The position numbers and the translations under genes were made by a program. Below the pieces are notes generated by a model, which was not told the DNA's origin, did not search any database, and saw only the letters and a program-made list of their open reading frames with translations. This document shows, one piece after another, positions 1-28,823 of a DNA stretch of 31,490 bases (positions within the stretch are counted from its first letter, which is position 1; each line of letters begins with the position of its first letter). The DNA comes from Halalkalibacterium halodurans (GTDB lineage Bacteria > Bacillota > Bacilli > Bacillales > Bacillaceae_D), in NCBI RefSeq assembly GCF_004376175.1, contig NZ_SNUY01000048.1:998-32487 (forward strand). The letters are read 5' to 3'.

Positions 1-1412
1 CACTAGCGTTGCATAAAAGAAGATACTTAAAATCTGATTATTCTGTTATTTGTTCATTCTAGTAAATGAGCTAAAAAGACAACACCAAGGGAAAGGTGGC
101 ACTGTCCATTTGGTAAAATTATACAATTACACTTGGGCGACAACGACTTTTTCTCTTTTACGGAATCCCGCTAGGAACAATGTAGCTAAGCCAAACTCTT
201 GCCGGGCGCCATATGGTCCTCTTTAACCATCGAGTAATTTGTAAAAGTGTTTGCTTACTTTTGGTTTCGAGTTGGATAAGAACATTGAGACAATACGTGA
301 TGAGCGCTAAAAACAGTTGATTGTGCACCGCTTCTTCGCTATAACCAAAGAAAGTTTTGATTTTCACGTGTTGTTTTAGCCATTTGAAGAAGAGCTCGAT
401 GGCCCATCTTGAGCGGTATAGATCGCCAATTTCATCGGCAGTTAAGTCGAAACGGTTGGTAATCAAACGTAAAAGCTGTCCTTTCGAATCAACTGTTTCA
501 ATGATTCGAAACACATTGTCACATCTCTTTTGAGTGGTACCGATGTAAGCCATTTTGTTTGAAGTTACCGAGCTATCTTCTGGAAGATCAAAGGTTTCAA
601 TCTCCCGAATAACTGCATTTTTCTTCAGTCTAGACAGAAAAAAGACTCCATCATCTGTGTAGCGATCAAATCGTTCATAATCGACATATCCACGGTCAAA
701 CACGTACATGGCGTCTTTATCATCAACAAGAATTTCAAGTTGGTTACGATCGTGCTCGGCAGCATTTGTAATAATGGCTTTATCAGGATAGACCAGTTCC
801 TGATCCACGTAAACTAAACGGAGATGAAGCTTAACACCAGCTTTTGACTTCCGAAAATGAGCCCACTGACAACGAGTAAGGTTAAGTGGCATCGTACTAG
901 AATCGATGATTTTAATAGGGTTCATCCTTTTTCGTTTGTCTGTTTTCAGATGAATGAGACGCACAAGTTCAAGGAAAATGGTCGATAAAAACTCTGGATC
1001 CATCGATTTATTTTTACGAGATAACTGAGATACACTAATCGATTTAAATCCAAGTTCTTTCTGCAAACCTTCATCCGCTAGTGCAGTATTTAGATCATGA
1101 AGGCTTTCCATCTGATTCAAATGGGCATAGAGAAAAAGTTTTGTAAATGAAAGTGTTTTTAGCTTCTTCGTATACTTATCAAGATGATATTTTTCAACTT
1201 GTTCATTAAAAAGTTTCATATTTATGGGTGCAACCCATTTACCAAATGAAGAAAATCGTGTATTCTTGTCCATAGCTGAGATCCTTTACGTTGGATTTGG
1301 ACAGGAACCACCTGTACTTCCATTGTAAAGGATTTTTTTATGGCTAAAACGATTAATAATTGAAGATTCAAAGGATTTTAAATCTTCAATTATTATTAAT
1401 GCAACACTAGTG
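1..1412 (-). mobile_element. IS4-family insertion sequence, copy A (both terminal inverted repeats present)
   Basis: CACTAGCGTTGCA at 1-13 and TGCAACACTAGTG at 1400-1412 are inverted repeats (12/13 match). They bracket one DDE transposase ORF. The 13-bp terminus is the same as in the IS at 16915-18486. The left flank is outside the window, so no target-site duplication can be scored. Confidence 0.85.
158..1273 (-). CDS. IS4-family DDE transposase (371 aa)
   Basis: Full-length ORF with RBS AAAGGA upstream. Motifs: IIDSST (D), VFDRGY (D) and YRSRWAIELFFKWLKQ, which fits the Y-x2-R-x3-E-x6-K signature of IS4/IS5-type transposases. Clearly a paralogue of the 17092-18321 transposase. Confidence 0.9.
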   Translation of the reverse strand: MDKNTRFSSFGKWVAPINMKLFNEQVEKYHLDKYTKKLKTLSFTKLFLYAHLNQMESLHDLNTALADEGLQKELGFKSISVSQLSRKNKSMDPEFLSTIFLELVRLIHLKTDKRKRMNPIKIIDSSTMPLNLTRCQWAHFRKSKAGVKLHLRLVYVDQELVYPDKAIITNAAEHDRNQLEILVDDKDAMYVFDRGYVDYERFDRYTDDGVFFLSRLKKNAVIREIETFDLPEDSSVTSNKMAYIGTTQKRCDNVFRIIETVDSKGQLLRLITNRFDLTADEIGDLYRSRWAIELFFKWLKQHVKIKTFFGYSEEAVHNQLFLALITYCLNVLIQLETKSKQTLLQITRWLKRTIWRPARVWLSYIVPSGIP

Positions 1413-1550
1413 AAATACAATATAACATTTACAAAAGGGGCATCAACCCAAACAGTTGATACCGCTAAAAAGTTTGTATCCATGTATGGTAGGCAAGAAT
1501 TAAGAGATGTTGCTAAACTGCATTTTAAGACCACAGATAAAATTATTTGA
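1413..1550 (+). pseudogene. Possible 3' remnant (45 codons plus stop) of a gene truncated by IS copy A
   Basis: The frame is open from the IS boundary to TGA at 1548-1550 (KYNITFTKGASTQTVDTAKKFVSMYGRQELRDVAKLHFKTTDKII) in very AT-rich DNA, where stop codons are frequent. I do not recognise a family. Confidence 0.25.
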
Positions 1551-1673
1551 TTATTAAGGATTCATGGGGGTCCGTTTGTTCTTAAATACGATAGATTGCT
1601 AGACGTAATATTCTTTTATTATGGTATATTAGATTATAGTTTAAATGTTGGATTCTTCTGGGGGGAAGGGACT

Positions 1674-2765
1674 ATGAGTAAAAAAAATATTTTTAAAGGG
1701 TTGCATCTCAATAGAAATATGTTGCTTCAATGGATTAATGAGTTTTCAGAGTTAAAGTTTTCCTCGTTTACATGTTCAGAACTCGAGCTTGTTGGAGGAA
1801 ATCAATACAGATGTACCATAGTTGGTGATGGTAAAGAGCTATTGGTTGACTTTTACTTTAATAAGGATGATAAAACTACAATACAACCTAAGGTTGGTCA
1901 AAACCAAGATACCAGCATGGAATTGGCAACCTATATCCTAGGGAAACTTGAATATTCGTATTCCGATATTAAGAGTAGATCTTACTCAGTGCATCCATTA
2001 CCAGAAGATGAACTTGACTTGATAATTGAATACCTTGGAGAATTGAAAGGTGTTAAAAAAGTAAATGTATCTCGGAATGATACTAACAGATACTCCTTGT
2101 ATCAATTTAAGAGTGAAATTGGTGACAAAATAACACTGACATATTATGATAACAAGAGATTACAGATACAGGGGAAACCGTTCTTTTTATACCAAGAAGT
2201 CACCTGTTTGCTTTCTGCTTACTTTCCTTTTGAAGATGTTATAAAAAACCAGTCAGAGTTCTTTAGTGTCGAAATTAGTCCTACCGAAATTAGAGATGAA
2301 ATGAAGGAAATGTTACCTTCTGCATATAATTATATAAATGAAGAGCTTAAGAAGGTATTATCAGCCTCTTTGGCACTGCAAAAAATAGATATAGAATTAG
2401 AAGATTACTCATCCTTTGTGTTTCCTGCTTTAAAAACACTTGAAGGTTATCTTAAGCAAATTTTCGCTGAAAAAGGAATTTTAATAAAAAAAGGTGGGTT
2501 TGGTAAATATTTTGGGTATAATAGTATATTAAAGAAATATAAATATCTTCAGGAGCCCGAAATTGACAGTATTGTAACAATTGATGTGATTGAAACATTA
2601 TATAATTATGTACATAAACATCGTCATACAATATTTCATGCGGAAGCAATTGCCTCTGCGACTAGAATTATTGAAACCAAACAAAACGCTGAATTAATTA
2701 TTGAACAAGTAATATCTTTAATTGAAACTACCCATGAAAAATTGAACAATCCTGTATCGAGTTGA
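1674..2765 (+). CDS. rnlA: RnlA/LsoA-like type II toxin (RNase LS family, HEPN-type endoribonuclease), 363 aa from ATG 1674
   Basis: ORF 1596-2765. The likely start is ATG 1674, preceded by GGGGGGAAGGG. It resembles E. coli RnlA (357 aa, recalled from memory) along its length: LLVDFYFNKDDKTTIQ, RLQIQGKP, DYSSFVFPALKTLEGYLK, GGFGKYFG. The HEPN R-x4-H motif RHTIFH lies at 2622-2639. Confidence 0.8.
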   Translation: MSKKNIFKGLHLNRNMLLQWINEFSELKFSSFTCSELELVGGNQYRCTIVGDGKELLVDFYFNKDDKTTIQPKVGQNQDTSMELATYILGKLEYSYSDIKSRSYSVHPLPEDELDLIIEYLGELKGVKKVNVSRNDTNRYSLYQFKSEIGDKITLTYYDNKRLQIQGKPFFLYQEVTCLLSAYFPFEDVIKNQSEFFSVEISPTEIRDEMKEMLPSAYNYINEELKKVLSASLALQKIDIELEDYSSFVFPALKTLEGYLKQIFAEKGILIKKGGFGKYFGYNSILKKYKYLQEPEIDSIVTIDVIETLYNYVHKHRHTIFHAEAIASATRIIETKQNAELIIEQVISLIETTHEKLNNPVSS

Positions 2766-2794
2766 TTTAATCCTTTTTAGGGATAAAGGTGATA

Positions 2795-3154
2795 ATGATG
2801 AAGAATTATGAAATTTATAAACTTAATAATGAATACCCTTATATCGTATTTTCTACTTCCTACATAAATCCTTTAGAGGATATTGAAAAAATTGAAGAGG
2901 AAATGGAATCCGAATTCCGGGGGAAAGTGTTGTTTGATCTTCTCTTGTCTAATGGATTAACATCTAACAGGTTTTTAGAGGCTGAATTTGATGGTGGTAA
3001 GTTTCAATATACTTCAATTAAACCGGTAGGCAATCTAGATAATTTAATTAAAAAAGAGTCTATCACTTTTTACCGTGAAAACATTGACCTACTGCAAAAT
3101 AGTGTTTTACCTAACGCACATAAATTTCTAATCAAAAAAGGACTGTTGGTTTAG
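2795..3154 (+). CDS. rnlB: RnlB/LsoB-like antitoxin (119 aa from ATG 2795; the ORF track starts at GTG 2789)
   Basis: It lies 29 nt downstream of the toxin gene on the same strand, with RBS AAAGGTGA. Its size matches RnlB (123 aa). The core GKVLFDLLLSNGLTSNRF resembles the RnlB core as I recall it (G-E-I-LFDLL-x-A-NG-x3-NRF). The toxin-first order matches rnlAB. Confidence 0.7.
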   Translation: MMKNYEIYKLNNEYPYIVFSTSYINPLEDIEKIEEEMESEFRGKVLFDLLLSNGLTSNRFLEAEFDGGKFQYTSIKPVGNLDNLIKKESITFYRENIDLLQNSVLPNAHKFLIKKGLLV

Positions 3155-3331
3155 AACTCATAAAAACTAGCATAGGCGAGCTTTCTTTGTGTAAGGTATG
3201 TTCATAAACCGAGGTTATCTATGGTTTTGTGACACGGGGGATCAGACCCTCCTACTCAATTTGACCACATTCTGACCACGAAACATATATAATCGTATAT
3301 TATTTAATTTGCTTTTTCGTAAATGAAAAGT

Positions 3332-3361
3332 GGCTAAACCTTCACTTACCAAGGTTTAGCC
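3332..3361. terminator. Perfect 11-bp stem hairpin (GGCTAAACCTT / AAGGTTTAGCC, 8-nt loop), possible terminator of the rnlAB-like operon
   Basis: The inverted repeat is seen directly. On the plus strand the T-rich tract follows only after about 5 nt. On the minus strand ACTTTTCATTT follows the stem. The function is uncertain. Confidence 0.35.
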
Positions 3362-3387
3362 TATCCGTGTTTATTTATATTAACTGT

Positions 3388-3457
3388 CGTAATGAAAGAA
3401 CGTAAGAAATACGGTCTTAAAGCTGCTCGTCGTGCACCTCAGTTCTCAAAGCGTTAA
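3388..3457 (+). pseudogene. rpsI: Orphan 3' end of rpsI (ribosomal protein S9, last 21 codons plus stop)
   Basis: 3392-3457 translates to [21 protein letters not shown]. The B. subtilis S9 C-terminus is ...[26 protein letters not shown]. No S9 coding sequence lies upstream (3155-3387). Confidence 0.85.
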
Positions 3458-3473
3458 TATCAATGGTTTACAG

Positions 3474-3508
3474 AACCCTCTGCTTTCCAACCCGGCAGAG
3501 GGTTTTTT
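3474..3508 (+). terminator. Rho-independent terminator (native rpsI terminator)
   Basis: Stem CCCTCTGC (3476-3483) pairs with GCAGAGGG (3495-3502) and is followed by TTTTTT (3503-3508). It lies 17 nt after the rpsI stop codon. Confidence 0.85.
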
Positions 3509-3509
3509 A

Positions 3510-3911
3510 ATGTGGCTCTACAATAAAGGATTCTCGTTAAATGTTGGGGCATATGCGTCTGAAATTATCCGTGCCGCGATTTTGTCAATTCCAAAAGGGC
3601 AATGGGAGGCGGCGTATTCGATCGGTATGAGCTATCCACAGGCATTAAAGCATATCGTGTTGCCGCAAGCCTCTCGTGTCTCGATTCCGCCCTTGTCCAA
3701 TTCTTTTATTAGCCTTGTGAAAGATACGTCATTGGCGTCGTTGATCCTGGCGGCAGAAATGTTCCGGAGAGCCCAGGAAATCGCAGCAACGAACTATGAA
3801 TTTTTACTATTGTATGCGCAAGCGGGCGCCATTTACTGGATTATCTGCTTTGGTCTCTCGTTAGTACAGGGACGAATCGAAAACCGTTTAGATCGCTATG
3901 TCGCGAAATAA
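3510..3911 (+). pseudogene. Amino-acid ABC transporter permease (His/Glu/Gln/Arg family), 5'-truncated: only the C-terminal ~125 residues remain
   Basis: The sequence [45 protein letters not shown] carries the EAA loop and is followed by the last TM segments. The ~90-100 N-terminal residues typical of the family are absent. Family similarity begins at about 3530, right after the rpsI terminator. The 3432 ORF start runs through the rpsI remnant and terminator and is an artefact. Confidence 0.8.
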
Positions 3912-3926
3912 GAAGGAGCTCATAAA

Positions 3927-4670
3927 ATGATTGCCGTACAGAGCTTATATAAAAAATTTGGAGAAGTCGAAGTACTCAAAGGCCTTGACTTAACCGTTGA
4001 ACGTGGAAAAGTAGTTGTCGTCATTGGTCCTTCAGGATCTGGGAAAACGACCCTCCTGCGCTGTTTAAATATTTTAGAGACACCGACTTCAGGATCGGTC
4101 CAGATTGAAAATCAAACGTTGGATTTCAGCGGAAAAGTATCTTCCAAAGAGATCGCTAATTTTCGCAGATTGACAGGGATGGTGTTTCAAAGCTATAACC
4201 TTTTTCCCCATATGACGGTACTTCAAAACGTCATGGAAGGCCCGATGACCGTAAAGAAAGAGGCAAAAGCACAGGTTGAGGAGAAGTCGAAGCAGCTCCT
4301 TGCAAAGGTGGGTCTTGCCGATAAGGAAACTGTATACCCATTTCAACTGTCAGGGGGCCAGCAGCAACGAGTAGGAATCGCTCGGGCGCTCGCCATGGAG
4401 CCGAAAGTGATGCTGTTTGATGAGCCAACGTCTGCCCTTGACCCAGAGCTTGTTGGCGAGGTTTTACGAGTCATGAAGGAGTTGGCCGAAGAAGGAATGA
4501 CCATGATCGTTGTCACCCATGAAATGAGGTTTGCTCAAGAAGTGGCGGACGAAGTCATTTTTATGGACGACGGCAAAATTGTGGAGCGAGGCACCCCAGA
4601 CGACATCTTCAAGACACCAAAAGTAGAGCGGACGAAGCAGTTTCTTCGTCTCATTCATAGTAGAGTGTAA
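3927..4670 (+). CDS. Amino-acid ABC transporter ATP-binding protein (GlnQ/TcyC-like), 247 aa
   Basis: Walker [10 protein letters not shown], signature [15 protein letters not shown], Walker [13 protein letters not shown]-loop VTHEM. RBS is AAGGAG. Confidence 0.95.
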
Positions 4671-5027: not shown

Positions 5028-5165
5028 TTGTCAAACATGAGAGAGCCCGGCTGTAGATGAGTACAGTAGAGGGCTGATGCAGCGAAATTAAAGACGTAGG
5101 GCAGAGTCTACTAATACTAAACATACATTAGGAACTTTTTAAAGTACAGCCCAAGTGCCTTCCAA

Positions 5166-5321
5166 ATGGATTTATTTGAATCAATCGTTGGGATTTTATT
5201 TTGGCTACTAATCATTTATATGATTTCCAGAGTTTTTGTCCATTTTGATCATCAAAAGAAAGAAATGAAATCCCTTCATGAGAAGGTGGATCAGTTGCTT
5301 GAAGAGAGGAAAGATCAGTAA
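5166..5321 (+). CDS. Possible small membrane protein, 51 aa (MDLFESIVGILFWLLIIYMISRVF...)
   Basis: The ORF is below the track cutoff. It has one hydrophobic segment followed by a charged tail. No clear Shine-Dalgarno sequence. Confidence 0.25.
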   Translation: MDLFESIVGILFWLLIIYMISRVFVHFDHQKKEMKSLHEKVDQLLEERKDQ

Positions 5322-5589
5322 ATGATAGCGGCTTTCAGGTGTTTAGCATTATATCAATTAAGACTTCAATACACTGGTTGAATGTTTGGTATTGCTTCAT
5401 CAAGTTTGACGTTCATGTCGATTCTAGGTACTTTTCTTGTTAAACCGATAGAATCTCAACAGCACCCCAGCCATCGCTTCAAATGGTATGGATTCTGTGT
5501 TACCCATGGAAAAGACCAAGTGTTTGCAGGCTGATAGGAACCCGTGGTACCGTTAGAAGTGAATGGATAGGGGAAGGGGCGATACAGCC

Positions 5590-5769
5590 ATGAGTACAGC
5601 AAATTTGGAGGAGCGTCTTGCTACGTTAAAAGCGGATTATATCAAGTATCAGGGCGATTTGGAGAAGGTTGAATCCACTGGTGGCGATGGGGGGCCCATT
5701 GAGCGCCAACTTTATCAGCTTGAAGAAGAAATCCAGAAAATTCGCGAAGAAATCCGCAGCAACGGATAA
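5590..5769 (+). CDS. Small coiled-coil protein, 59 aa from ATG 5590 (MSTANLEERLATLKADYIKYQGDLEK...)
   Basis: ORF 5563-5769. The internal ATG at 5590 is preceded by GGGGAAGGGG. The sequence shows heptad-like charged repeats. Confidence 0.55.
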   Translation: MSTANLEERLATLKADYIKYQGDLEKVESTGGDGGPIERQLYQLEEEIQKIREEIRSNG

Positions 5770-5809
5770 GGGAAGGCATGGCCCTTAAAGTGAAAACTCC
5801 TTACGAACG

Positions 5810-5849
5810 GCACCTCATTGACAATTAAACCAATGGAGGTGCTTTTTTT
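5810..5849. terminator. Hairpin plus T-run between convergent genes
   Basis: GCACCTC (5810-5816) pairs with GAGGTGC (5836-5842) and is followed by TTTTTTT. The loop is large, about 19 nt. Confidence 0.5.
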
Positions 5850-5863
5850 GTTAGAAAAACATG

Positions 5864-6589
5864 CTACCCCTGCAATCTATACAATTCACGGGCCATCGCT
5901 TCAAGAATGTACACGACGGGCACTTGGGTCGTGATGTTTGCTTTCTCAAAAAACTCTTCCGAGACATAATACGAAAGATTGACATCTGCTACTTTTGCTA
6001 TTGTGGAAAATTTATTGTTGGTGATGCTAATGATTTTGCTACCTTCTTGTTTTAGCTGATTCACTTGGGTGATGGTAAAGTGGGTTTCCCCTGAGACAGA
6101 TAGGGCGATGGTGACGCTGTTCTGCCGGAGCTTGGAGTGAATCGGGTAAGAAAAGTCTTTAATGTACATCGATAATTTCCCTAAGGCGGAAAAATACCTT
6201 GCGCCATATTCAGCTAAGATTCCAGAACTGCCGATTCCGATGAAGATGACGTTTTCCGCATCTGCCACAAGGGCAGCGGCCTCGGAAATTCTTTCTTCCA
6301 AGTCCCCTTTAAACGCCCGTTCGAAAAATTCCGCAATCGCATGCTGGGAGCTTTTAATCGGAGCTTTCTTCTCTTTTTCTAGGTGCATTTTTAGCTTCAC
6401 TTTAAATTCGGAAAACCCGTCGCAATCCACTTTTCGGCAAAAACGCAAAATCGTCGCTGTCGATACGTGGGTTTCGTCAGCAAGCTCACGAATCCGCATG
6501 TACGCTACTTTTTCTGCGTGTTGGCAAATGTAGTTGTAGATCGACATTTCTAACTCATTAAAGGACGCAATGACCTCACTTGAAAACAT
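5864..6589 (-). CDS. RpiR/MurR-family transcriptional regulator (HTH plus SIS domain), 241 aa
   Basis: The N-terminal HTH is MRIRELADETHVSTATILRFCRKV. SIS motifs are IFIGIGSSG and LSVSGET. RBS is GAAGGGG. It is divergent from the glucosidase genes. Confidence 0.9.
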   Translation of the reverse strand: MFSSEVIASFNELEMSIYNYICQHAEKVAYMRIRELADETHVSTATILRFCRKVDCDGFSEFKVKLKMHLEKEKKAPIKSSQHAIAEFFERAFKGDLEERISEAAALVADAENVIFIGIGSSGILAEYGARYFSALGKLSMYIKDFSYPIHSKLRQNSVTIALSVSGETHFTITQVNQLKQEGSKIISITNNKFSTIAKVADVNLSYYVSEEFFEKANITTQVPVVYILEAMARELYRLQG

Positions 6590-6721
6590 CGTATACCCCT
6601 TCTCTGTCCATGATTTCCTTACTAGATGTTCTATACTGCTACATATCCCATCGTTGCATTGCTTTGCTACTATTTCACCGCTATTGTATCTTCCGTTTGA
6701 ATAACACTATTATAGCACTAA

Positions 6722-6748
6722 GTAACATACTGTTACAAAAATGTAACA
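6722..6748. promoter_or_regulatory. Cluster of GTAACA/TGTTAC half-sites (candidate operator) in the rpiR / GH1 divergent intergenic region
   Basis: The sequence is GTAACAtacTGTTACAaaaaTGTAACA. TGTTACA-N4-TGTAACA (6731-6748) is a perfect 7-bp inverted repeat. A third half-site lies at 6722-6727. Confidence 0.35.
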
Positions 6749-6946
6749 CGCGACTTTCGGTGTGATAACAAACCATATGGCCTCCGCTTGTTTACGATCA
6801 CCACCCTTCCATTTACGATGGTGGTAGAGGTTAACTAAACGTTTGTTTAAAAGAGGCGAAGGCCCGTATCGGTAAGCTCTTCGATTATCAAAAACGGATC
6901 AGTTTTTGGTCTTTTGTGAAACGGGAAGACAAGAAGATTTCAATAG

Positions 6947-8392
<1,446 letters not shown>

Positions 8393-15546: not shown

Positions 15547-15577
15547 TTCACAAAGTGTTGTGAACGATTTCGCACAA
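15547..15577. promoter_or_regulatory. Rex-like operator candidate upstream of lctP
   Basis: The sequence is TTCACAAagtgTTGTGAAcgatTTCGCAC. The 3' part, TTGTGAA-N4-TTCGCAC, is close to the Gram-positive Rex box TTGTGAA-N4-TTCACAA. The 5' part is a perfect 7-bp inverted repeat. The site lies 70-100 bp upstream of the lctP start. Confidence 0.4.
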
Positions 15578-15669
15578 AGCACAATTTCACCATTTCGGTT
15601 TTATTTGTAGGGGAGTGTAAAAAATTGACGTTTAAGCAGTACAATATAGTGAGAAAGGATGGTTACGTA

Positions 15670-24212: not shown

Positions 24213-24650
24213 ATGACGGTTATTACAACATTTACACAAAAACGTCGGGAGAAACAGTGGAAGTTTGAACGGAAAATGCTTCGTGAATTGACATTGCAAC
24301 AAATAAAAAAAGACATTCAGACTCATTTTCAAGACATTATCCCGTTTCATTTTTTAACCCACCCATTTTTGATGGACCCTTGTACCGATATGGCCATTGA
24401 TGCCTATTTACTTGGCGCCGAGTTTGGCCGTTTTGGCTACTATGGGGAGCCAGCAGAGAAAGCGAAAGCGCGATGCGAAGAAGAATTGTCTGACCTGTCC
24501 CACTATGTTTTCGATTTACTTCAAGGTTGGTATACAAACTCCGAGTTTATTCTCGATTCTCTCCACGTTGCTTCACAAGCCTTTGTCGATCATTGGTGGC
24601 GTAAAGGATTTGAAGAGGGGACAAAACGGTACAAACTCCGCCTTCATTAA
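24213..24650 (+). CDS. ybaK: YbaK-like conserved hypothetical protein (DUF2521 type), 145 aa
   Basis: Its size and its position immediately upstream of cwlD match B. subtilis ybaK. RBS is GAGGAG. The assignment rests mainly on synteny. Confidence 0.6.
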   Translation: MTVITTFTQKRREKQWKFERKMLRELTLQQIKKDIQTHFQDIIPFHFLTHPFLMDPCTDMAIDAYLLGAEFGRFGYYGEPAEKAKARCEEELSDLSHYVFDLLQGWYTNSEFILDSLHVASQAFVDHWWRKGFEEGTKRYKLRLH

Positions 24651-24712: not shown

Positions 24713-25435
24713 ATGATCATGATTAAGTGGTTAAAAGGTGGAGTGTTTGCACTAGGGCTTGTTGCACTCCTTTTCATTATCCAATATCAGTTTATTAGCA
24801 ATGATTCATCTTCCACATGGAATCTTCCGTTGTCTGGAAAGGTTATTATCCTTGATCCGGGACACGGAGGGATCGATGGCGGGGCGACGTCTAGGGCAGG
24901 TGCCTTGGAAAAAGACATTACGCTCGCTGTTAGCTTGGAACTTCGCGACTATCTCCAGGAAGCAGGGGCCCTCGTGTTAATGACACGAGAGGAAGATCGT
25001 GACTTAGCGGATGCGACGACAGCGAAGGTTCGCCAGCGAAAGGTTCAAGATTTAAAGCGGCGAGTTGAAATTGTCAATGGTTCTGGAGCTGATATGTTTG
25101 TCAGCATCCATTTGAATGCGATTGCTTCTCCTCGTTGGAGCGGGGCGCAAACGTTTTACAATCGAGCGATTCCGGAGAACGAACCTTTAGCCCGGTTTGT
25201 CCAGGATCAGCTGAAACGTAATTTAGAAAATACGAGTCGTTATGCAAAGCCAATTAATAACGTTTTTTTGTTAAAACATGCTGAAATTCCAGGTTTGCTA
25301 GTTGAAGCAGGTTTTTTATCCAATCCTTCCGAAGCTGAATTGCTTGAGACAGAAGACTATCAACAAAAAGTTGCAGCATCCATCTACCAAGGGATCATGC
25401 GCTATTACACAAATGAAGATGCGCCTGAGCAATAA
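24713..25435 (+). CDS. cwlD: Germination-specific N-acetylmuramoyl-L-alanine amidase CwlD, 240 aa
   Basis: N-terminal TM segment. Amidase_3 motifs are ILDPGHGGIDGGA, FVSIHLNA and LVEAGFLSN. It sits in the conserved cwlD-salA-gerD-kbaA-pdaB context. Confidence 0.92.
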   Translation: MIMIKWLKGGVFALGLVALLFIIQYQFISNDSSSTWNLPLSGKVIILDPGHGGIDGGATSRAGALEKDITLAVSLELRDYLQEAGALVLMTREEDRDLADATTAKVRQRKVQDLKRRVEIVNGSGADMFVSIHLNAIASPRWSGAQTFYNRAIPENEPLARFVQDQLKRNLENTSRYAKPINNVFLLKHAEIPGLLVEAGFLSNPSEAELLETEDYQQKVAASIYQGIMRYYTNEDAPEQ

Positions 25436-28061: not shown

Positions 28062-28823
28062 TTATTTGATTTCATCATGGGTTGGATGGGCGTCCGCCAT
28101 TAGCTCCTCGATCGAGCGAAAATGATATCCTTTTCCTTTTAGTTGATCGATGATAATGGGCAGTGCTTTATGAGTTTGTTTAGCTGAATCAGACGCATGC
28201 ATGAGTACGATATCACCTGGTGAGATATGGTCAACAACTTGACGAACGATGGCATCAACCCCAGGGTTTTCGTAGTCTCGTGAGTTGATACTCCAATGGA
28301 CAATCGTATAATCATAAGACTCGGCCAAGTTTAAGACACGTTTGTCGAAATCTCCATTAGGTGGCCTGAGTAAAGTCGGCTTTTCTCCGGTAATCGAGCT
28401 AATGACTTGTTGGCTTTGTCTTAGGTCCTTACGAATTTTTTCGTCCTCCCAAGTTGTATAGTTTTTGTATTGATATCCGTGACTGCCGATATGGTATCCC
28501 GCCTCTTGAATAAGCTCTACTAGCTCAGGGTGTCTTTCTGCCCAAGAGGCCGAGATGAAAAATGTGGCTTCCTCTACTTTTTTACTCTGTAATACATCAA
28601 TAATTGGTTTTACCCGTTGTTCTCCCCAACTAATATTAAAGGTAAGGGCTGCTACTTTTTCGTCCGTTTCTGCTTTATGAAACGCTTGGGGGCCTTCTGG
28701 TGTGGAAAAAACCATAAGGTGACTGCGCTCTAAATAAAGTAAACTGGCGCAAAAAAAAGCAGTGAGAAGAATGATGGTTAATTGCTTTATCTTTTTTGCA
28801 CGTAATACCCAGAAGAACTTCAT
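28062..28823 (-). CDS. pdaB: Sporulation polysaccharide deacetylase PdaB (NodB homology domain), 253 aa
   Basis: N-terminal TM segment. NodB-type motifs are LTFNISWG, HGYQ and LRPPNG, with a late LMHASD. Synteny agrees. RBS is AGGAGG. Confidence 0.87.
   Translation of the reverse strand: MKFFWVLRAKKIKQLTIILLTAFFCASLLYLERSHLMVFSTPEGPQAFHKAETDEKVAALTFNISWGEQRVKPIIDVLQSKKVEEATFFISASWAERHPELVELIQEAGYHIGSHGYQYKNYTTWEDEKIRKDLRQSQQVISSITGEKPTLLRPPNGDFDKRVLNLAESYDYTIVHWSINSRDYENPGVDAIVRQVVDHISPGDIVLMHASDSAKQTHKALPIIIDQLKGKGYHFRSIEELMADAHPTHDEIK

Follow-up and report, generated by a model that had tools for sequence, protein, structure and literature searches.

Features of the locus

The DNA considered here, referred to below as the window, is a stretch of 31,490 nucleotides (C125:998-32487) from genome G000, which is available as an assembly of 181 contigs. 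Its features are collected in Table 1. The central one is a short piece of the gene for ribosomal protein S9: translation of positions 3392-3457 yields the product of the last 21 codons of rpsI, which is identical to the C-terminus of the only full-length S9 of this genome (130 aa, C96:56593-56985). At the nucleotide level the similarity forms a 68-bp repeat, in which window 3392-3459 and C96:56920-56987 agree at 66 positions, and the two mismatches (T/C at 3424 and G/A at 3451) are both synonymous. With a 21-nt probe from the tail and up to 3 mismatches, zero chance matches are expected, and the whole genome holds just two rpsI tails, the one on C96 and the one in the window; the complete rplM-rpsI pair is present in one genomic place, on contig C96. 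The tail is followed by a hairpin terminator, with a stem formed by 3472-3484 and 3494-3506 and a T-run to 3508 (-20.1 kcal/mol, z = -3.7). This stem resembles the terminators that follow the attR copies in G001, a genome of the same genus, and in G009, and is unlike the arm that lies 3' of the full rpsI on C96.

The sequence-only reading of this DNA had described the site as an orphan rpsI 3' end of 21 codons with its terminator, preceded by AT-rich DNA without S9 coding sequence, and the translation, the 68-bp match and the hairpin at 3472-3508 bear this out. The remainder of the S9 coding sequence was sought upstream of window position 3392 and was not found, and the GC content to the left of the tail (rnlA and rnlB DNA) is 31-33%, against about 44% in the remaining window. 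The start at 3388 that had been proposed is 4 nt too far to the left, since rpsI homology begins at 3392. It had also been anticipated that a full-length rpsI would lie elsewhere and that its last 70 bp or so would be repeated here, and both are the case for the gene on C96, of which the last 68 bp return in the window.

Table 1 Features of the window around the rpsI tail and of its downstream flank
Feature	Position	Strand	Details and basis
IS4-family insertion sequence, copy A	1..1412	-	Inside island cargo; transposase 158-1273; Pfam DDE_Tnp_1 and DUF4372
RNase HII/HIII-family gene, 3' end, split by IS	1413..1550	+	5' part on C125 before the window (C125:46-849)
rnlA-like HEPN RNase toxin gene	1596..2765	+	Pfam RnlA_toxin_N, RnlA_toxin, RnlA-toxin_DBD, HEPN_RnaseLS
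rnlB-like antitoxin gene	2789..3154	+	Pfam RnlB_antitoxin, E = 2.9e-24
Two direct TGACCAC heptamers, 11 nt apart (TTGACCACATTCTGACCAC)	3261..3279	+	Probable arm-type integrase-binding sites; motif conservation
Hairpin flanked by A-run and T-rich run	3332..3361		Likely bidirectional terminator closing the cargo, part of the right arm; terminator scan
rpsI 3'-end duplicate (21 codons, stop codon, then TA)	3392..3459	+	Direct repeat/attR core; 66/68 to C96
Native-type rpsI intrinsic terminator	3472..3508	+	Fold energy; stem CCCTCTGC...GCAGAGGG
Second breakpoint	3509..3527		About 19 nt of unassigned DNA between terminator and truncated permease; full-length permease homology from about 3528
Decayed amino-acid ABC importer	3528..4670	+	Permease to 3911, lacking about the first 105 residues; intact ATPase 3927-4670
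ybaK-like gene and cwlD	24213-24650, 24713-25435	+	Ancestral rpsI downstream neighbours; tblastn with G023 proteins and ORF list

To the left of the tail, the window opens with an IS4-family element that possesses the terminal inverted repeats CACTAGCGTTGCA and CACTAGTGTTGCA and has split an RNase HII/HIII-family gene, generating a 9-bp target duplication (AAATACAAT, C125:841-849 and window 1413-1421). The RNase reading frame is continuous across the insertion once one AAATACAAT copy is removed. Its upstream part matches Pfam RNase_HII (E = 2.9e-28), and the gene is also truncated at its 5' end, by a repeat at the start of the contig. A 10-N scaffold gap is present before the window (C125:850-1135, window 1-138) and is bordered by the same 138 bp on both sides; these flanks overlap, so there is no real gap at that position. 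Downstream of the RNase gene, all four RnlA Pfam models and RnlB_antitoxin were found above their cut-offs, and the two genes are predicted to form an RnlA-RnlB type II toxin-antitoxin or anti-phage pair. The activity of RnlA in Escherichia coli depends on RNase HI, for which reason the position of an RNase H-type gene directly upstream of rnlA-rnlB deserves mention. When phage records were searched with window 1413-3520, the rpsI tail was matched and the rnlAB cargo was not.

The right junction

The DNA between rnlB and the rpsI tail has a recurring organization. The double TGACCAC motif is unique in the genome, and at least 10 genomes show it conserved at about 130 nt before an rpsI tail. 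It overlaps a promoter-like -35/-10 pair (TTGACC, 18 nt, TATATT) that is conserved through the -10-like box, with the hairpin following 35-45 nt downstream. When related right arms were folded singly, a hairpin was found at the equivalent spot in 8 of 9 (9 of 10 counting all), with a stem sequence that differs in each of them; RNAalifold, applied to a MAFFT alignment of the right arms, gave no consensus structure, the hairpins being out of register, and no covariation is claimed. Within the module (window 3261-3391), the AT-rich spacer after the hairpin ends exactly where the rpsI tail starts. At least 10 other genomes, belonging to several families, carry the same arm module at the same distance, abutting the rpsI tail at the same nucleotide, and the rpsI tails that close related elements on the right, as well as the attP of a Listeria phage, have this same left boundary.

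It could be suspected that the junction is an assembly artefact, or the product of a chance IS-mediated rearrangement unrelated to site-specific integration, as the genome is IS-rich and scaffolded and the N-gap with its duplicated 138-bp overlap lies just before the window. We regard this as very improbable. A misassembly at the tail junction appears unlikely because the 68-bp repeat is shorter than the 127-bp overlaps of the assembly graph, because its copies differ at two positions, and because the arm meets the tail at this very nucleotide in at least 10 independent genomes; furthermore, both flanks are unique sequence within a 32-kb contig.

Complete elements with this kind of arm, here called B-type, were found in G243 (6.6 kb), G267 (19 kb) and G093 (18 kb). 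They have a common layout of rpsI, terminator, four TGACCAC repeats and a convergent gene for a 383-aa integrase, and TGACCAC heptamers are present on both of their arms. The direct repeat in this family is long: it covers all 66 nt of the tail and extends over the terminator in integrated elements. The integrase of G243 has an Arm-DNA-bind_4 domain, and its gene is followed by an excisionase-type HTH gene and a phage-type replication gene. In view of the heptamers on both arms and the Arm-DNA-binding domain of the integrase, the TGACCAC repeats are probably arm-type sites at which the integrase would bind.

The right-arm module could also be seen as a very small transcription unit, instead of, or besides, a set of integrase arm sites. 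An alternative to which we attach a rather low probability is that the promoter-like pair and the hairpin constitute a tiny element-encoded RNA gene, or an outward promoter plus insulator, that would act in excision control or in expression across att, and, separately, that the rpsI tail and its terminator also delimit, on the left side, a decayed and older insert of 20.7 kb (3509-24148) of which the right-hand repeat has been lost.

Two further observations concern B-type sequences. The attL rpsI of G243 (C2:183800-191600, 456-929) contains a run of 5 A's, against 6 in the attR copy and in other genomes (CGTAAAAATACGG), by which the frame is shifted over the last 16 codons and the ORF is extended to 157 aa; this reflects either a sequencing error in the homopolymer or damage to the gene end that the element supplied. 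A fragment on contig C123 of G000 that resembles the C-terminus of the B-type integrase was discarded as a candidate: it adjoins sufB and is unrelated to rpsI.

The left junction and its integrase

At the other copy of the repeat, contig C96 meets a multicopy IS about 170 bp past the full rpsI. This C96 tail of about 170 bp, together with contigs C62, C92 and C91, shares 84-90% identity with the DNA downstream of rpsI in G023, a genome of genus g7. It encodes a tyrosine recombinase that is convergent with rpsI and has Pfam Phage_integrase and SAM-like domains. In G000 the gene is spread across the C96 tail, C62 and C92, and it is broken by two IS insertions: the frame is open on C62, where IS ends cut it at about codon 27 and just before the region with the C-terminal His and catalytic Tyr, and this C-terminal region is encoded on the C96 tail. 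With two IS insertions, the integrase of G000 is judged to be non-functional. The sequence-only reading had pointed to an integrase next to the full rpsI as a mark of an integrated element. A tyrosine integrase is indeed situated directly beside the C96 rpsI, in convergent orientation, but it is broken by IS, the interior of the island is shattered, and what is left should be regarded as a fossil.

The corresponding element of G023, which we call A-type, measures 12.3 kb. Both of its arms bear GGTTCAA-like repeats, and at its end the rpsI stop region is present as a 29-nt copy, followed by a native-type terminator. The element contains an FtsK/SpoIIIE-like gene and candidate replication-initiator ORFs without a Pfam match, and can be described as IME-like. 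A relaxase, RCR-type initiator or coupling protein could not be assigned to the G000 copy: close homologues of these G023 genes are absent from G000, the only matches being FtsK-like ones elsewhere with 25-27% identity.

A scan with one genome per species uncovered relatives of this integrase (58-100% identity) at 49 loci across many Bacilli. A full, convergent rpsI lies about 177 nt from the integrase gene at 35 of them; among the remaining loci two are cut by a contig end and two have only an rpsI tail. Among these relatives, those of Anoxybacillus, Atopococcus, Siminovitchia, Bacillus thermotolerans, Cerasibacillus, Sporosarcina and Gracilibacillus show 98-100% identity, and the one of Streptococcus infantarius 94%. 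GGTTCAA repeats are present in the attL arms, which are nearly identical across host genera. Since the rpsI coding sequence at A-type attL sites is host-specific up to its last 20-30 nt and the attL arms are shared, the A-type crossover is placed at the very end of rpsI, and A-type elements are therefore assigned, on sequence grounds, to a short-repeat family. The near-identity of integrase and attL arms in different hosts suggests a very recent spread of one element among families of Bacilli.

The probable native locus and the DNA beyond the terminator

About 21 kb downstream of the tail, and on the same strand, the ybaK-like gene and cwlD are followed by salA/mrp, gerD, kbaA and pdaB, reaching position 28823. 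In Bacillus subtilis the gene order downstream of rpsI is also ybaK, cwlD, salA/mrp, gerD, kbaA and pdaB. The ybaK-cwlD block is collinear with contig C169 of G001, of the same genus, which bears rpsI as well: on this single contig, rplM-rpsI is separated by an insert of 6 kb from a second rpsI tail, behind which the ybaK-cwlD block is found. An empty site is present on contig C16 of G003, a genome of the same family, where rpsI, terminator and ybaK are found with nothing between them, and the island-free relative that had been proposed as a means to define attB is thus available. On account of the ybaK-cwlD-salA-gerD-kbaA-pdaB order on the same strand and the synteny with G001 and G003, we consider the window to be the native rpsI locus, as far as synteny shows.

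The distance between the rpsI tail and ybaK is hypervariable: it amounts to 20.7 kb here, against about 0.1 kb in G003, 4 kb in G023 and 5 kb in G001, and comparison of 3510-24148 with G001 revealed no counterpart. Directly past the terminator lies a decayed importer operon. Its permease matches Pfam BPD_transp_1 at profile positions 60-183 only, and its ATPase matches ABC_tran. The operon of relatives has the genes for binding protein, permease and ATPase in this order. An orthologous binding-protein gene and the 5' part of the permease gene were searched for genome-wide and are absent, so a simple insertion that split the importer operon can be dismissed. A further copy of the rpsI tail or terminator was also sought in the window, particularly near ybaK, and only chance matches of 9-13 nt were obtained. 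With no further att copy between the terminator and ybaK, 3509-24148 is at most a putative insert and not a demonstrated bounded island. In G009 and G001 the repeat reaches the end of the terminator. The truncation of the permease may be due to a separate, later deletion of native DNA past the terminator, or may represent the decayed left end of an older insert of the long-repeat type, whose left edge the terminator would then mark as well. The right flank can thus be called native as regards ybaK-cwlD, but the DNA immediately past the terminator, with its truncated permease, is not intact native DNA.

Elsewhere, rpsI tails with the right arms of elements were encountered away from rpsI, in G003, G062 (C2:55727-55792) and G365 (C2:58373-58404). 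In G003 (C15:22000-38000) tails at 7796-7888 and 15569-15599 flank a polysaccharide-synthesis block of 7.7 kb next to groESL and an IS21 remnant, and in both G062 and G365 the extra tail is on a second contig. Because tails occur at such places, an orphan rpsI tail by itself does not prove an attR or the rpsI locus. It is accordingly conceivable that the tail in the window is the element's own, attP-derived rpsI tail and terminator, which was moved or captured here, for example by IS activity, and is not a native attR. B-type elements and a Listeria phage carry an rpsI tail with terminator of their own, orphan tails reside at the three non-rpsI loci just described, the permease beside the terminator is truncated, and IS copies are nearby. 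Nevertheless, the genes that ancestrally follow rpsI are present in the window with the expected order and strand, and the terminator after the tail resembles the chromosomal ones of G001 and G009 rather than the B-type terminators of G243, G267 and G093, which makes a displaced tail improbable in our opinion.

Origin of the island

We conclude with good, though not full, confidence that the tail is an attR-type junction of mobile DNA that was integrated by a tyrosine recombinase at the native rpsI 3' end, and that this mobile DNA is now decayed and most likely composite. The interpretation as an attR-like scar, already put forward from the sequence alone, is strengthened by the combination of the 68-bp repeat, the conserved attL arm with its integrase, the conserved right arm and the native ybaK-cwlD genes downstream. 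Elements that target rpsI carry their own copy of the rpsI tail. Upon integration, this copy would complete rpsI at attL (now part of C96), and the chromosomal tail that it displaces would remain, terminator included, at the opposite end, at window 3392-3508.

The left and right ends of the island belong to different element families, and for this reason it is most likely a decayed, IS-riddled composite of two unrelated families that target rpsI. An A-type left end (short repeat, GGTTCAA arms) and the right arm of a phage-like B-type element (long repeat, TGACCAC arms, Arm-DNA-binding integrase) would have been joined by tandem accretion, after which the internal junction between the accreted elements was presumably lost and IS bombardment followed. 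The RNase H-like gene and rnlA-rnlB would be surviving cargo of the B-type part. The earlier placement of rnlAB as cargo at the right end of an island holds insofar as rnlAB adjoins attR, but the island is IS-riddled, probably composite and not one intact element. A B-type integrase or left arm, an A-type right arm and a third rpsI tail were sought in the G000 assembly without success, and because of their absence the accretion step is inferred rather than seen. Accretion was seen directly in Siminovitchia, where an A-type element is situated behind the rpsI tail of another element.

The same features can be read as a single element, with one island running from C96 to window 3391 and the IS-disrupted integrase using two different arm sequences. 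The genome has only two rpsI tails, and tyrosine-integrase elements may have P and P' arms that look dissimilar. We nonetheless consider a single element to be unlikely, and less probable than a composite, because arm type and integrase type go together in every complete element examined. In the A-type element of G023, GGTTCAA-like repeats occur on each arm and the repeat measures 29 nt, whereas in G243, G267 and G093 the TGACCAC right arm is always accompanied by a left arm with TGACCAC and by another integrase, of 383 aa. The integrase-like ORF of G093 is only 29% identical to the C62 protein, of which no relative at E <= 1e-10 is present in G243 and G267, and the case of Siminovitchia shows that an A-type element can come to lie behind the tail of another element.

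For the composite island, attL (C96) and attR (C125) are on different contigs. No unique path of 127-mer end overlaps leads from C96 to C125, there being dozens of IS copies and contigs below 500 bp missing; the synteny with G001 argues for adjacency of the two junctions. As the integrase is split by two IS and the arms are mismatched, the island is expected to have lost the ability to excise.

Prevalence and meaning

A second, strong rpsI tail was detected in 10 of the 49 genomes of the host's family and a short one in 4 more, and the other 35 have a single tail. The rpsI tail is thus a busy landing site beyond the streptococci, in spore-forming Bacillales, with a second tail in about a fifth to a quarter of the genomes of the family, and it is used by at least two unrelated integrase families. 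The occurrence of an integrase that is 98-100% identical in several distant genera points to recent and wide spread. For the genome under study, the tail defines where a genomic island ends on the right, in a badly fragmented and IS-riddled assembly, and this boundary explains the presence of an anti-phage-type rnlAB cassette in AT-rich DNA beside housekeeping genes.

Between a full rpsI and a 52-nt rpsI tail, G034 (C12:5000-17000, 5045-6919) has an insert of 1.8 kb with two ORFs, by eye for excisionase-type HTH and PIN-domain proteins, and no integrase was seen among the ORFs listed. The insert resembles a minimal cassette of the toxin-antitoxin type at the rpsI site.

Comparison with known systems

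Streptococcal IMEs and ICEs are known to use the 3' end of rpsI as target; integrase families with long and with short repeats have been described for them, and accretion with decayed elements is frequent (PMC5357655). IMESag-rpsI and other streptococcal rpsI elements include the Tyr_4 and Tyr_5 types with long repeats and the Tyr_7 type with short repeats (PMC5357655, PMC5704250, PMC4701971). Since the rpsI target, both repeat families, accretion and decayed relatives have already been described for streptococci, the present finding is a well-supported example of the known rpsI-targeting islands in a host group that is less documented, and it leaves the current understanding of how such elements work unchanged.

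Like IMESag-rpsI and the streptococcal IMEs and ICEs, the island discussed here targets the rpsI 3' end, has a tyrosine integrase gene adjoining it and displays direct repeats that duplicate the gene tail. The coexistence of long- and short-repeat families, tandem accretion with decayed elements and toxin-antitoxin cargo are other points of agreement, as is the integrase relative of S. infantarius with its 94% identity. Differences are that the host is a spore-forming member of the Bacillales, judged from the ybaK-cwlD-gerD-pdaB context, that the G000 copy has no assignable relaxase or coupling protein, that its integrase has been destroyed by IS and that its two ends are from different families.

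The right junction can also be compared to the attP of the temperate Listeria phage vB_LmoS_188 (KP399677.1), in which an rpsI tail is preceded, at 120-150 nt, by heptamer repeats. This tail begins at the same nucleotide (ATGAAAGAACG), and it is accompanied by a terminator of its own, more heptamers and a convergent integrase, as in B-type elements. The heptamer of the phage is TGGCATA, in contrast to TGACCAC in the window, and the phage is complete with lysis and structural genes, whereas just the right arm and some cargo genes remain in the window. The B-type part of the G000 island may have been a prophage, a phage satellite or an IME.

In its present state the island is also reminiscent of CIME-like decayed or cis-mobilizable islands, in which att-type repeats are kept, the recombination module is lost or broken and defence or toxin-antitoxin genes form the cargo. 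Unlike such remnants, it carries arms of different families at its two att flanks, which makes its cis mobilization by a single incoming integrase doubtful.
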